From an uncultured Dehalococcoidia bacterium (GTDB lineage Bacteria; Chloroflexota; Dehalococcoidia; Lucifugimonadales; UBA3495), in the NCBI GenBank assembly GCA_958296445.1, contig OY282565.1, positions 1,565,570 through 1,629,569 on the forward strand: a DNA stretch of 64,000 nt, read 5' to 3'. The notes under the pieces were generated by a model. It saw nothing but the letters and a program-made list of their open reading frames with translations, was not told the origin of the DNA and made no database searches. The translations under genes and the position numbers were made by a program. Positions 886 through 7,795 of the stretch are shown piece by piece (the stretch's first letter is position 1; the number at the start of each line of letters is the position of its first letter).

Positions 886-1728
886 ATGGCACGCACAGAG
901 AAGAATGCCCTACAGCAAGTAGTCGAAACATTTTCATTGGAAGCACTTCCTCGGTCGGTAGATTTGAATGAACTGGCAGTCAAATTTGGCGTATCCTCTG
1001 TAGAAGTGGACACCATCTCTTCAGAAGCTATGCTAGTTCCTAGTGCAGACGGCTACAAGATAATCTTGAAAAAATCCGATTCACCTAGCGGTCTCACTAG
1101 GCAGAGATTTTCATTTGCCCACGAGCTGGGACATTTACTGCTAAAATCTGTCGGATACAGCGGCAATTCCAGTTCTGGCGCCAAACATCGTGAAAAGCAC
1201 GGCTATAACGAAGAAGAAAGGCTATGCGATCAGATTGCTGCCGAAATCTTGATGCCCGGCGTCGCATTTACTTCTGATGCCGCAGAGTCTGAATGGTCTT
1301 TGAGCAAACTTAGCCATTTGGCTGGAATGTACGGCACTTCCATTCCGGCTACCGCCAGACGGATGATTGGTCTTATACCAGAGCCGTGTGTTATGGGGAT
1401 ATGGAAGCCCGCTGCCTCTGATACAGAAACCCATAGCCTGCAACAATCATTTGGAACACAAAGCAGATATGGAGTGCCCAACGCAACGCGCTTGTCCCGC
1501 CTGCGGTTGTGGCTAATAGCTCGAGCCGCAAATAGTCGAAGAGTGGAATCCGGTATTTTGCCACTCCTTGCCCGGAACCGGCCTTCGGCTTCTCCGCCTG
1601 ATGTTCCCGCTGATGCTTGGGCTTGGGGGAAAGATGAATTTCGCCGAGTTATGGTCTTCTATTATCCTGAAAGGAAACTGACGGATGATATGTTGACTAT
1701 TGCAAATGCAACTTGGCGGTCGATGTGA
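886..1728 (+). CDS. ImmA/IrrE-family zinc metallopeptidase (DUF955/COG2856-like)
   Basis: HEXXH motif in the typical context 'FSFAHELGHLLL', with a downstream 'EERLCDQIAAEILMP'. Adjacent to the HTH gene. Confidence 0.75.
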   Translation: MARTEKNALQQVVETFSLEALPRSVDLNELAVKFGVSSVEVDTISSEAMLVPSADGYKIILKKSDSPSGLTRQRFSFAHELGHLLLKSVGYSGNSSSGAKHREKHGYNEEERLCDQIAAEILMPGVAFTSDAAESEWSLSKLSHLAGMYGTSIPATARRMIGLIPEPCVMGIWKPAASDTETHSLQQSFGTQSRYGVPNATRLSRLRLWLIARAANSRRVESGILPLLARNRPSASPPDVPADAWAWGKDEFRRVMVFYYPERKLTDDMLTIANATWRSM

Positions 1729-3248
1729 GTCAATCAGCGCATACACAGCCAGAATCATCTGGGCATCAAATCTCTTTCTTTCAAGATACTCCCCCGGCGG
1801 GGCAAAATCTTAGCGGCAATGCTGTACCCCCGGCCCTTGGCTCCTCCGATACATCTGAGGCCAGTACTCCTTACCCCCGGCAGGTGTATCCGCTGGATGC
1901 GCGGCTATATTCGGAGGAGCAGATTGCTGTTGCTTTTGCTATGACGTCGCGGCGGGCTGAGTCTTTTGATGAGATTGCGCGGCAGGTTAGCGAGGAGACG
2001 GCGGCCGATTTTCATGAGCGTTGGGTGGTGGGGTACGGGCACGCTTCGGTGGCGGAACACGCCGTGGTTCATTTGGCGGTGGAGAACATTTCCCGCTTGG
2101 CCTGCGATGGGCTGGAAGATAACCGTTTGGCTTCCTATACCGAAAAGTCGTCGCGGTATCAGGTGATGCCCGACGATTATTTTCATATTCCTGCTGAGTT
2201 GGACGGGTATCCCGGTATGCGGGAGGAATATGAAGGGGCTTGCCGTTATCTTTTTGATGCATACCGGAAGCTGATTGACGGTTGCGTGGAGTATTTGCGG
2301 GGCGTCCGTAGGCAGGGGGCGCGGGAGGGCGATTCGGCTTACCGGCTGCGCGTCCGGCGTATTGCTACCGACGGCTGCCGGGCGGTTTTGCCGGCGGCGA
2401 CTTTGACTAACGTGGGGGTTACGGCCAACGCCCGCACTCTGGAACACGGCATATCGAAGTTGCTGTCGTCGGGGCTGGAGGAGGAGCGGCAGTTGGGGCT
2501 GGCGATGAGGGAGCAGGGGCGGGCGGTTACGCCTACGCTAATCAAGTATGCGGAGGAAACGCCGTATCTGGAGCGGCTTCAGCGACGCGGGGGCGGGTTG
2601 GCGGATTCGCCGGATTCCGTTGATGGGCCGTCGCCGGTTGAGGTGCGGCTGGTTCATTGGGACGGGCAGGCGGAGGAAAAGCTGGCGGCGGCGTTGCTGT
2701 ACGGCGTTTCCGGGCTGGATTATCCGGCGGTCTGGGAGTGGGTGCAGGGGATGACGGGGGCGGAACGGCAAGGCGTTATTGACGATGCTTTGTCCGGTAT
2801 GGGCCCTTATGACGCGCCGCCGCGTGAATTGGAAGTTGTGGATTATACATTTGAGTTTTTGCTGGATTATGGGGCGTTCCGGGAGTTCCGGCGGCACCGG
2901 ATGCAGACTTATTTGCCGCAGGCGTTGACGGTGGCGCACGGGGTTCGGACGCCGACGGTGGTTGCGGAGGCGGGGCTGGAGCCGTTGCTGGTTGACGCTG
3001 CGGGGGTTGCGGAGCGGGCTTTTCATAGGATATATGAAGTGTCTCCGGCGGTGGCGCAGTATGTGGTTACTCACGCCCATAACCGGCGGGTGGTTTCGAA
3101 GCTGAATTTGCGGGAATGTTATCACTTGTTCAAGCTGCGGACTTCGGCGATGGCGCATGAGTCGATCCGCGTTCCTATGCTGGAGGCGCTGGGGTTGGCG
3201 CGGGAACGGCATCCGGGGTTGTTCCGGGGGTTGCGGTTGCGGGATTAG
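1713..3248 (+). CDS. thyX: Long-form (two-lobed) ThyX-like FAD-dependent thymidylate synthase family protein
   Basis: ThyX-type motifs are split over the two halves: 'HASVAEHAVVHL...NRLASYTEKSSRYQ' in the first and 'FREFRRHRMQTY...ECYHLFKLRTSAMAHESIR' in the second. Start is uncertain (TTG 1713 or GTG 1725). Overlaps the ImmA 3' end. Confidence 0.6.
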   Translation: MAVDVSQSAHTQPESSGHQISFFQDTPPAGQNLSGNAVPPALGSSDTSEASTPYPRQVYPLDARLYSEEQIAVAFAMTSRRAESFDEIARQVSEETAADFHERWVVGYGHASVAEHAVVHLAVENISRLACDGLEDNRLASYTEKSSRYQVMPDDYFHIPAELDGYPGMREEYEGACRYLFDAYRKLIDGCVEYLRGVRRQGAREGDSAYRLRVRRIATDGCRAVLPAATLTNVGVTANARTLEHGISKLLSSGLEEERQLGLAMREQGRAVTPTLIKYAEETPYLERLQRRGGGLADSPDSVDGPSPVEVRLVHWDGQAEEKLAAALLYGVSGLDYPAVWEWVQGMTGAERQGVIDDALSGMGPYDAPPRELEVVDYTFEFLLDYGAFREFRRHRMQTYLPQALTVAHGVRTPTVVAEAGLEPLLVDAAGVAERAFHRIYEVSPAVAQYVVTHAHNRRVVSKLNLRECYHLFKLRTSAMAHESIRVPMLEALGLARERHPGLFRGLRLRD

Positions 3249-4140: not shown

Positions 4141-4407
4141 TTGTTGCGGGGTTTTTTGCGGCGGGGTGCTAGGGCGCACGGCTGTGCGCCCCTACGGGTG
4201 CGGTGGGATGCTAGGGCGCATGGTTGCGGGTGGCGTTAAAACGGGGGCGGGATTTTTTGCGGCGGGGTGCTAGGGCGCACGGCTGTGCGCCCCTACGGGT
4301 GCGGTGGGATGCTAGGGCGCATGGTTACGGGTGGCGTTGAAAATGGGGGTGGGGTTTTTGTGGCGGGATACTGGGGCGCACGGCTGTGCGCCCCTACTGG
4401 TGCGGTG
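4141..4407. repeat. About 101-bp tandem repeat (about 2.6 units) carrying the GGGCGCAC-GGCT-GTGCGCCC hairpin; continues at 5825-5935 beyond the IS insertion
   Basis: 'gcggcggggtgctagggcgcacggctgtgcgcccctac' recurs at 4158, 4259 and, degenerate, about 4360. Confidence 0.85.
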
Positions 4408-4453
4408 GGTTCTGTTGCATTTGCTGGGTAGCTGGCAAGGAAAGCGCGGCGCT

Positions 4454-4923: not shown

Positions 4924-5817
4924 CTATATCCCTCCAGCATTATTGACTTTCACCGCGGCCACGTCTTCCCAATCCTTGAATGGCAATTCCGCCCCGGCCG
5001 CTTCCGCCGGCCGCTTTCCCTTCAGGCTTTCGTGGGGGCGGAAATAATTGTAGTGGAGTACCAGCCCGTCAATGTAGGATTGCCCGGTTTCCCGCTTTTT
5101 CAATGCCCGTAGCGTCTTATCCCGGTCTCGCAGTGTGCCTTGCAGTCGCTCGCTCAGATTGTTGTTGATTTCCGCCCGTATGCCCTTGCTCACCACGTGC
5201 TTGACCGGGCGGGTTGGAAATGCCCGCGGCAACGCATCCCGGTATGACCGCAACCCATCCGTCTTGACTTGCTGGGGCGGATTTTCCGCCCGTTCCCTTG
5301 CCAGACTCAAGGCCGTCGCCGCGGCGCGTGTCGTCCTTACCGGGGATAGATACGCCGCCAGCACAAACCGGCTGTCGCTATCCATCACGTTGAATAACCA
5401 GTAATTCTTGCCGCCGACATTGACCACCAGTTCATCGGCAACCCATACGTCTCCGGTGGCAACCTTCATTGGCTTAACGATTTCATCCGCCCTTTCCGTC
5501 AATTCCCTAACCCATCGGTAGACTGTTGCCGGGTTGGTTTTCCTGTCAAAGTATTGCCCGATGTTTTCCGCCGTGCGCCTGTAGGATAGGCCGTCAAAGT
5601 ACATATCTACCGCGGCCCCCTTTTCGTGCGGGGTGGCGTGGGGATGGATGGGCGTCGGCGGATTGACGGGTTTCCCGTTTTCGTCAAGGATGATTACCCG
5701 CTTGCCCTTGCCTGAAGTCCGGCAGGTTTCGCAGGCAAGGCCGCTTTTTCGCTTACAGGATGACCCGCACAAATGCCCCATCGCTGGTATGCTATGCCAA
5801 CTACCCAGCAAATGCAA
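4924..5817 (-). CDS. IS6-family DDE transposase with an N-terminal Cys-rich (zinc-finger-like) segment
   Basis: DDE context: 'VWVADELVV', 'VKTDGLRSYRDAL' and 'NNNLSERLQGTLRDRDK'. N-terminus reads 'CGSSCKRKSGLACETC'. The start lies inside the right IR; an alternative ATG is at 5781. Confidence 0.8.
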   Translation of the reverse strand: MHLLGSWHSIPAMGHLCGSSCKRKSGLACETCRTSGKGKRVIILDENGKPVNPPTPIHPHATPHEKGAAVDMYFDGLSYRRTAENIGQYFDRKTNPATVYRWVRELTERADEIVKPMKVATGDVWVADELVVNVGGKNYWLFNVMDSDSRFVLAAYLSPVRTTRAAATALSLARERAENPPQQVKTDGLRSYRDALPRAFPTRPVKHVVSKGIRAEINNNLSERLQGTLRDRDKTLRALKKRETGQSYIDGLVLHYNYFRPHESLKGKRPAEAAGAELPFKDWEDVAAVKVNNAGGI

Positions 5818-5997
5818 CAGAACCGTGCGGTGGGATGCTAGGGCGTACGGCTACGGGGTGGCGTTAATAACGGGGGAGGGATTTTTTGCGGCGGGGTGCT
5901 AGGGCGCACGGCTGTGCGCCCCTACGGGTGGGGTTAAAGGCGGCCCAAGGTGGGATTCTTCGCTTTGCTCAGAATGACAGGTAGGTGGCGGTGGGGG

Positions 5998-6900
5998 TTA
6001 GGGTAGGGGGGTTTCTAGGATTGTGTTGGTTGGGGTGGGGGGGTTGGTTTGGGCTAGGGGGCCTTGGGTTAGTTGGACGGAGTCGAATTGGGTTAGGGGG
6101 TTGTTGGGGTTTAGGGCTAGGGTGCCCCAGCCGCGTTCATCTATGTCCATATCGCCGGCCCGGATTTTTTCTGCGCCTTGGGTTAGCCATACTTGATAGG
6201 CTGAATCGCTGTTTAGGGGGTCTAGGTTGGATGCCATAATTACGCCGGTTGAGCCGTCGCCGGATAGTACCAGTACGCCCCGGGATGGGCTGTTGGGTTG
6301 CATGGGGTTCATTACTAGGGACTGGTTGCCGGGTTGGGCTAGGGTGTTTTGCAGGAACTGGAGGCTGCCTTGCATTTGGGTAACGGTATCCGATGCTTGG
6401 GCTAGGCGGGCGGTGGCGGTGGCCTGATTCTGTCCCATTGCTTGGCGTAGCTGGACGTTTTCCGCTTCCATTTCGGTCATTTGGCCCGACATCTGGATGT
6501 TGAGGGTGATTACGAAGGCGACTAGGGCGATGGCGGCGACGGCGGTTACGGGCATCAGCAGGCGCCCCCAACGGCTGCCTAGGGCCGAGTAGATACCGTT
6601 CCAGCTTGGCGGGCGGCGGCGATTGGATACCGATACCCTTTGCGGGGGCGGCGGCGTTTCGCCGGGGGGCAGCAGTTCTATGGAGGCCAGCAGACGGGTT
6701 CGCACTCGCTCCGGCGGCGCGTGGGCTGGGGCGGTGTAGGCTAGGGCGGCGGCGGTTTGGAGGTGGCCGTCAATGACCGCGGCGCACTGCTGGCAGTCCT
6801 CGAGGTGGTCGAGGACGGTCTGCTCTTCGTCCGGCTCTAGGGCGTCTAGGGCGAAGGGTTCGAGCAGGTCGGCGGGGTGGGTGGCGTTATTCGTCGTCAT
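5998..6900 (-). CDS. Anti-sigma factor (zinc-finger/RskA-like, single transmembrane helix)
   Basis: N-terminus 'LDHLEDCQQCAAVIDGH' (HxxxCxxC), a central TM segment 'LLMPVTAVAAIALVAFVITL', and an RskA-like 'YQVWL' C-terminus. Lies downstream of the ECF sigma gene. Confidence 0.75.
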   Translation of the reverse strand: MTTNNATHPADLLEPFALDALEPDEEQTVLDHLEDCQQCAAVIDGHLQTAAALAYTAPAHAPPERVRTRLLASIELLPPGETPPPPQRVSVSNRRRPPSWNGIYSALGSRWGRLLMPVTAVAAIALVAFVITLNIQMSGQMTEMEAENVQLRQAMGQNQATATARLAQASDTVTQMQGSLQFLQNTLAQPGNQSLVMNPMQPNSPSRGVLVLSGDGSTGVIMASNLDPLNSDSAYQVWLTQGAEKIRAGDMDIDERGWGTLALNPNNPLTQFDSVQLTQGPLAQTNPPTPTNTILETPLP

Positions 6901-7185
6901 CTTCTTGTAGCGCAGTTCGCAGTTTTTGCGTTGGCGGAGGGTTCGAGCAGGTCGGCGGGATGGGTGGCGTTATTCGTCGTCATCTTCCTGTAGCGCGGTT
7001 CGCAGTTTTTGCGTTGGCGGAGGGTTCGAGTAGGTTGGGGGGATGGGTGGCGTTATTCGTCGTCATTTTCCTGTAGCGCGGTTCGGAGTTTTTGCGTTGG
7101 CGGAGGGTTCGAGCAGGTTGGCGGGGTGGGTGGCGTTATTCGTCGTCATCTTCTTGTAGCGCGGTTCTTAGTTTTTGCATTGCTA
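6853..7185. repeat. 83-bp tandem repeat, 4 units, spanning the sigma-factor 3' end and the anti-sigma 5' end
   Basis: The motif 'ggcgttattcgtcgtcat' has its 'cat' at 6898, 6981, 7064 and 7147, exactly 83 nt apart. Confidence 0.9.
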
Positions 7186-7795
7186 GGCGGACTCTGGTTT
7201 TTACGGTTCCTAGGGGTTGGGAGAGTCTTTCGGCCATTTCGGATTGGGAGTAGCCCTCGAAGTAGGCCAGCTCGATGACTTCGCGCTGGTTGTCGGGTAG
7301 GGTTTCTAGGGCGCGGATTATGCGCTCCCGCTCTAGGTTTTGGGATACTTGGGACTCTACTGAGGGGTCGCCGGAGGGCAGCCTTTCTAGGGTGTCGTAG
7401 CCTTCCGGGTCGGTTAGGGTGTCGGCGCGGCGGCGGGAGCGGATGACGTCCACTACGCGGTGGTGGGCGACGCTCATTATCCAGGAGCGGGGGTTGCCCC
7501 GGCTGGCGTTGAAACTTTCGGCCTTTAGCCAGATGTTCAGGAAAACGTCTTGGGTCACTTCTTCGGCTAGGGGGGGTTGTTTTAGCATACGCAGGGACAG
7601 GGAATAAACGGGGGTCATATATCGGGTGTACAGGGTGTTGAGGGCGTCTTTGTCTTTGGCGGCGATGCGCTCCAGTAGCTGATTATCGTCGGGTTCACCG
7701 GGCGCGGGCGGTTCACCGGGCGCAGGTGGTTCGCCGGGCGCGGGCGTTGGGCCGGTTGGAGGTAGGGGGCGCTGGGCCGCCAATTCATCGTCCAT
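7136..7795 (-). CDS. ECF-type RNA polymerase sigma-70 family factor
   Basis: Region 2 'TQDVFLNIWLKAESF...SWIMSVAHHRVVDVIR' and region 4 'REVIELAYFEGYSQSEMAERLSQPLGTVKTRVRLAMQKLR'. Confidence 0.85.
   Translation of the reverse strand: MDDELAAQRPLPPTGPTPAPGEPPAPGEPPAPGEPDDNQLLERIAAKDKDALNTLYTRYMTPVYSLSLRMLKQPPLAEEVTQDVFLNIWLKAESFNASRGNPRSWIMSVAHHRVVDVIRSRRRADTLTDPEGYDTLERLPSGDPSVESQVSQNLERERIIRALETLPDNQREVIELAYFEGYSQSEMAERLSQPLGTVKTRVRLAMQKLRTALQEDDDE

Follow-up and report, generated by a model that had tools for sequence, protein, structure and literature searches.

Simple-sequence contingency loci consist of units of 1–9 bp and bring about phase variation by slipped-strand mispairing. Regulons can also differ between strains through mutation of a regulator itself, as natural mutations of the anti-sigma factor reportedly raise expression of the SigK regulon in Mycobacterium bovis. 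Tandem units of larger size are located between the co-transcribed regulator genes senX3 and regX3, where they constitute a MIRU-VNTR (Supply et al., 1997, as summarised in PMC12548453), which in Mycobacterium tuberculosis strains is composed either of three 77-bp units or of two 77-bp units and one 53-bp unit (PMC4213456). The MIRU ORFs are coupled at -4, which is thought to render the insertion harmless, and translational coupling in general is reported to be best at a spacing of -4 to +3 nt, to be weaker with longer overlaps and to be little or absent beyond 30–40 nt (PMC12548453).

By analogy of layout, this array at senX3-regX3 is the closest known parallel to the locus addressed here, a tandem array at the junction of an ECF sigma factor gene and its anti-sigma factor gene in an uncultured Dehalococcoidia bacterium. 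Literature searches turned up no description of an array of this type between a sigma and an anti-sigma gene. The stretch of DNA analysed, 64,000 nucleotides in length, is referred to as the window, and all coordinates are those of the window if not stated otherwise (Table 1).

An array of 83-bp units between intact sigma and anti-sigma genes

The product of the upstream gene matches Sigma70_r2 (PF04542), Sigma70_r4_2 (PF08281) and Sigma70_ECF (PF07638), and the product of the downstream gene possesses a C-terminal RskA_C domain (PF10099) together with one hydrophobic segment and, in its N-terminal part, the sequence HLEDCQQC, read from the translation, a putative zinc-binding motif of the HxxxCxxC type. 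With regions 2 and 4 as the only sigma regions, an RskA partner and an adjacent, co-directional arrangement of the genes, the two constitute an ECF sigma/RskA-type anti-sigma pair, and the identity that the earlier note on this DNA had assigned from the letters alone is borne out by the Pfam matches of both partners. The adjacency of the two genes is kept in all relatives. A Shine-Dalgarno-like motif is missing at the usual distance from the anti-sigma start; instead, AAGAAG or AGGAAG directly abuts the ATG. The sigma gene itself contains an 18-bp repeat (7692–7746, minus strand; 3.1 copies), which is in frame and encodes PGEPPA in an N-terminal extension, with an equal copy number in the two close strains L022 and L023 described below; the more distant sigma orthologues align from about residue 22–36 onward only.

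Both flanking genes of the array are intact and only their junction is altered. Each unit contains the last 14 sigma codons and the first 16 anti-sigma codons, and in the alignment of the units on the coding strand the sigma tail QKLRTALQEDDDE, followed by the stop codon TAA, overlaps by 14 nt with the start ATGACGACGAATAA, from which the anti-sigma head MTTNNATHPxxLLEPxA is read. The final 14 codons of the functional sigma gene are situated inside the first unit. Successive ATGs are found at 7149, 7066, 6983 and 6900, and the sigma TAA is located 11 nt beyond the first of these, which gives the 14-nt overlap. The resulting geometry is a hop of -14 into mini-ORF 1 and then three hops of -4 up to the anti-sigma gene, the ATG of which is 235 nt away from the sigma stop. 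The 50 nt upstream of this true anti-sigma ATG are as in a single junction, since each unit copies the native start context.

The 333-bp array matches itself alone in the 4.0-Mb single-contig genome, and a 27-mer across the junction is absent from the genome-contig and metagenome-contig collections. The description given by the earlier note, namely four 83-bp copies with the ATGs and the 14-nt overlap at these positions, 28-codon mini-ORFs linked by ATGA, outer copies as the only ones that join full genes, and a relay that follows from 83 being 2 mod 3, holds in all its parts: Tandem Repeats Finder returns 4.0 copies, all coordinates agree, three of three mini-ORFs are seen in the ORF list as well as in the sequence, the unit alignment together with the ORFs assigns only the outer copies to full genes, and the frame arithmetic yields the relay.

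Table 1. Features at and next to the sigma/anti-sigma junction.
Feature	Position	Strand	Description and basis
ECF sigma gene	7136..7795	minus	219 aa, C-terminus QEDDDE followed by the stop; ORF and Pfam
Anti-sigma gene	5998..6900	minus	300 aa, N-terminus MTTNNATHPADLLEPFA...; ORF and Pfam
Tandem array	6850..7182	minus	period 83, 4.0 copies, 93% matches, no indels; Tandem Repeats Finder
Unit 1	7100..7182	minus	true sigma tail and stop (TAA 7136-7138), start of mini-ORF 1
Unit 2 (internal)	7017..7099	minus	unit alignment
Unit 3 (internal)	6934..7016	minus	unit alignment
Unit 4	6851..6933	minus	true anti-sigma start (ATG 6900-6898); ancestral Phe16 codon retained
Mini-ORF 1	7149..7063	minus	28 codons, MTTNNATHPANLLEPSANAKTPNRATGK; ATG 14 nt inside sigma end; TGA overlaps next ATG
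Mini-ORF 2	7066..6980	minus	28 codons; ATGA link at each end
Mini-ORF 3	6983..6897	minus	28 codons; TGA overlaps anti-sigma ATG
101/60-bp array	4149-4409 and about 5825-5935; L022 5051-5705; L023 none		
IS6-type transposase (DDE_Tnp_IS240)	4924-5817	minus	Pfam; just downstream of anti-sigma gene

Related genomes possess one junction

A comparison of orthologous loci, as the earlier note had proposed, finds a single junction elsewhere and unit numbers that differ between close strains. Coordinates of the sigma and anti-sigma matches were surveyed in each of the genus's 40 species genomes, and a single overlapping or abutting junction is present in 37 of 37 other species having the pair. A base-by-base reading of 20 congeners places the anti-sigma ATG inside the sigma end in every one of them, with an overlap of 14 nt in 19 and of 11 nt in one. 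In the species collection, more than 55 Dehalococcoidia/Chloroflexota loci equally possess one junction, usually with the 14-nt overlap. The relatives, which are MAGs, go by the labels Dehalococcoidia, Chloroflexota or SAR202, and several have isolate names that look sponge-derived. As the single junction extends across the relatives, the amplification is derived, while the single overlap is ancestral and strongly conserved; among the genomes compared, amplified junctions occur in one species-level lineage only.

An independent amplification in L081, a more distant Dehalococcoidia MAG, was considered and rejected, as an apparent gap of 156 nt between the two genes is a tblastn artefact and the usual 14-nt overlap is found there. 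The sigma orthologue of this MAG is broken up into two frames that overlap (1492..1974 and 1971..2144 of L081), by a frameshift or an assembly error.

Unit number and unit divergence among close strains

Close strains were found via the 90% cluster of the anti-sigma protein, the three members of which are the window genome (W), a 2.3-Mb contig (L022, here B) and a 67-kb contig (L023, here C). Exact-protein look-ups with the window sigma and anti-sigma proteins gave no match, and a search with the sigma protein for further strains retrieved only proteins at most 88% identical. The flanks of W, B and C are 96–97.5% identical, and the arrays consist of four units in W, seven (7.0) in B and four in C, so that the copy-number variation predicted by the earlier note does exist between conspecific strains. 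All 15 units of the three strains are exactly 83 bp long and free of indels, with 17 variable sites among them.

At matching unit positions, W and C differ by 1, 3, 3 and 3 nucleotides, which amounts to 10 differences in 332 nt (3.0%) and equals the divergence of the flanks; units within one array are 6–8% divergent. The latter value implies that turnover is slow, and the unit-by-unit orthology of W and C implies that the four-unit state is older than the split of these two strains and that homogenisation has not occurred since. Judged by the divergence of the arrays, the variation in copy number is one on an evolutionary timescale. Recombination between the units, including the functional end units, is indicated by 12 site pairs that fail the four-gamete test and by mosaic units in strain B, where the second unit (B2) resembles the terminal unit of the window strain (W4) and the third (B3) resembles the first (W1); B3 has a CTA-AGA variant that W and C possess in their functional sigma tail.

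Two derived changes are found at nearly all internal junctions, ATG to ACG at unit position 3, by which a Met codon of the sigma frame is lost, and TTC to TCC at unit position 79, which converts Phe16 to Ser. These two changes, which lie next to the breakpoint, point to a first duplicate that had already aged when it was amplified.

Integrity of the mini-ORFs and variation within the units

Across the three strains, 12 of 12 mini-ORFs are intact. Since only about 5% of substitutions would disrupt a link, 15–30 neutral changes keep all links with P 0.2–0.45, and the integrity of the relay is no more than chance would leave; the 12 intact mini-ORFs together with the absence of indels might point to selected maintenance of the relay. 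No conservation is seen in the mini-peptides, since every change in the mini-ORF tails is non-synonymous, and functional mini-peptides were rejected on these grounds. The internal anti-sigma heads show P10, N11 and S16, none of which is ever present in the terminal functional unit.

A different pattern is observed in the sigma tail, where five shared variants (CTG/CTC/CTA, CGA/AGA, ACC/ACT, CAA/CAG) are all synonymous in the sigma frame and non-synonymous in the frame of the mini-ORFs, even though the sigma frame is not used in the internal copies; two singletons alone change a sigma residue. The shared variants occupy unit positions 13, 14, 19 and 28, which in unit 1 correspond to window positions 7169, 7168, 7163 and 7154. 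The synonymous bias has a P of about 0.001–0.005 for the five changes and of 0.01–0.06 with the singletons included, values which are post hoc and concern a choice among three frames. Purely neutral internal units do not account for this pattern, which, given the small sample, is to be taken as a lead. The simplest account is that segments exchanged with the functional first unit bring variation into the internal ones, as is supported by the shared CTA-AGA variant. A +1 slip on GCAAAAACT from the mini-ORF into the sigma frame was considered as a cause of the pattern, and nothing supports it. Antisense ORFs of 38 aa on the plus strand have third positions misaligned with the variable sites and were treated as mechanical by-products.

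The RNA of the array is less structured than shuffled sequences (z +1.68; below 96 of 100 shuffled controls in folding), for which reason RNA structures that hide the start codons were rejected. An internal promoter of the sigma-70 type was not found in the units, and the terminator-like hits are on the non-coding strand.

A genome rich in tandem arrays

With a minimum period of 25 and a minimum of 2.5 copies as the threshold, 326 tandem arrays are present in the window genome; their combined 119.6 kb make up 3% of the 4.0 Mb, and the sigma-junction array is the sole one among them with a period-linked stop/start chain into a long ORF. The period is divisible by 3 in 199 of the 326 arrays. Literature on tandem-repeat richness in sponge Chloroflexi was searched for, and nothing relevant was found. 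Adjoining the anti-sigma gene downstream is a 101/60-bp array, which comprises 2.6 units in W, where an IS6 element lies beside it, and about 650 bp in B and is not present in C. As the gene lists of L022 and L023 are devoid of a transposase at this place, the IS6 insertion looks specific to the window strain. From the 326 arrays and the variable neighbouring array it follows that the formation, persistence and variation of minisatellites are a general trait of the lineage and not a peculiarity of the junction.

Origin of the array and alternative readings

The reading preferred here, to which a probability of roughly two in three is assigned, is that the array is a lineage-specific, junction-derived VNTR which is tolerated as an automatic relay probably keeps translation coupled, and the number of which drifts. 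In a sponge-type Dehalococcoidia lineage, the genome of which has an unusual wealth of tandem arrays, the conserved 14-nt overlap and its surroundings, 83 bp in all, would have been duplicated in tandem and subsequently amplified through unequal recombination. With the breakpoints in two neighbouring genes, one intact copy of each is always left, the sigma gene first and the anti-sigma gene last, and a chimeric ORF with an anti-sigma head and a sigma tail arises between the intact copies. Relative to the anti-sigma frame, the sigma frame is shifted by plus 2. At a period of 2 mod 3, as with 83, the chimera reads the third frame and stops at the TGA within the next ATGA, while a period of 1 mod 3 would bring it into the sigma frame, with the 14-nt overlap restored, and a period of 0 mod 3, for the consensus unit, would let it run in frame through the next ATG. 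By this frame arithmetic of the duplication, the ATGA relay needs no selection to arise.

We infer translation of the mini-ORFs, and the coupling by them, from the arrangement of starts and stops in the sequence. Ribosomes that end sigma translation would start on mini-ORF 1 as they formerly did on the anti-sigma gene, and the -4 overlaps would pass them on to the true anti-sigma start, perhaps with some loss per hop. In this manner the relay would tie anti-sigma to sigma translation across the 235-nt gap, which would itself otherwise be uncoupling, and the array may be tolerated because the coupling would be kept. The copy number (4, 4 and 7) drifts between strains on an evolutionary timescale and may shift the ratio of sigma to anti-sigma somewhat.

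The earlier note had gone further and proposed a slipped-strand rheostat. In the adaptive form of this proposal each unit would be a lossy reinitiation step, the number of units would set the anti-sigma/sigma ratio and with it the basal activity of the ECF regulon, and strains would be selected for different settings, with which the occurrence of four versus seven units in conspecific strains, the complete set of intact mini-ORFs free of indels and the persistence of the array, which could have been deleted down to one unit, over about 3% strain divergence are consistent; the conserved overlap of the relatives, moreover, hints that coupling of expression is important. Nevertheless, the units give no support to a fast or adaptive switch, as those within an array are so far apart that change must be slow, the two four-unit arrays are orthologous with a divergence equal to that of their flanks, and the relay is no more intact than expected by chance. 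Neither is such behaviour special to the junction, since persistence and variation are common to the 326 comparable arrays of the genome, including the neighbouring non-coding one, which also varies between strains. With the native start context in every unit, the anti-sigma start region is unchanged, and the final hop of -4 is of the spacing that is reported as most efficient (PMC12548453). An adaptive rheostat is therefore regarded as unlikely. Chances are slim, too, for a copy-number-dependent attenuator, in which a fraction of the ribosomes would pass each ATGA hop, so that strains with four and seven units would differ in anti-sigma per sigma and in basal activity of the ECF regulon, while exchange between internal and first units would keep the internal sigma tails compatible with the sigma protein; this exchange would explain the five synonymous sigma-tail variants.

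On the other hand, the array might be without effect on either gene, a silent spacer with mini-ORFs that are weakly translated or not translated, while free ribosomes start the anti-sigma gene. The preferred reading is weakened to the extent that RNA of low structure may give free ribosomes access to each ATG, by which the relay would possibly be irrelevant, and the poor folding of the array relative to 96 of 100 shuffles, the single-junction sequence in the 50 nt before the true ATG and the lack of conservation in the mini-ORF peptides all agree with a spacer. Against it stand the missing Shine-Dalgarno-like motif at the usual distance and the location of the start codon within the upstream gene in all relatives, a layout of coupled pairs in which independent initiation is unusual, so that a silent spacer is judged quite improbable. 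That a single junction was wrongly expanded by the assembler, an artefact which the earlier note had itself considered, draws on nothing beyond the general risk that repeats pose in metagenome assemblies. It has practically no probability, as 17 sites vary between units, the array is present in three separate assemblies that differ in unit number and in strain-specific variants, its diverged seven-unit and four-unit versions coming from two assemblies independent of the window, and the window genome is a single 4.0-Mb contig.

Comparison with known systems

In common with contingency loci, the repeat number at the junction is heritable, variable and in principle able to alter expression. The units, however, are not short, near-identical switching units, but are 83 bp long with copies 92–94% alike, and by frame arithmetic any whole number of units would leave both genes and the relay in place. 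Furthermore, the number has been stable over about 3% divergence in two strains (W and C), the unit-by-unit orthology of which argues against rapid change in copy number.

The three hops from mini-ORF 1 onward resemble the NTGA type of -4 coupling (reviewed in PMC12548453), while the first hop keeps the ancestral -14. Ordinary stop/start coupling differs in that here four successive hops are lined up via peptides without conserved sequence.

As in the Mycobacterium SigK/RskA system, an ECF sigma factor is paired with a membrane anti-sigma factor that has an RskA C-terminal domain, and SigK/RskA provides a precedent for tuning of an ECF regulon at the strain level through the anti-sigma factor. 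There, the difference is an amino-acid substitution in the anti-sigma factor, whereas here the proteins are unchanged and the junction alone is altered. If the unit number alters the sigma/anti-sigma ratio, the array would be a simple heritable reset of an ECF stress regulon between sponge-associated strains; if the ratio is unaffected, it would show clearly, by an example from nature, why duplications of this kind are tolerated. In either case, the locus draws attention to a genome with 3% minisatellite DNA.

With the MIRU-VNTR at senX3-regX3, the junction array shares tandem units of 50–100 bp between two co-transcribed regulator genes, a short ORF per unit in the same direction, the stop of which overlaps the next start at -4, and a tandem number that varies between strains (4, 7 and 4 units). 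MIRUs, though, are dispersed and apparently mobile, while the junction unit is found at one locus in its genome, is built from the ends of the flanking genes themselves and resides in a host of the Chloroflexota/Dehalococcoidia. Because the unit is the coding sequence of the flanking genes, it goes back to local duplication and not to insertion, and homology with MIRUs is not expected. A MIRU-like layout, with strain-variable units and relay mini-ORFs between two regulator genes, can thus arise without a mobile element, as tandem duplication of an overlapping junction suffices and would almost automatically save both genes and a form of coupling.
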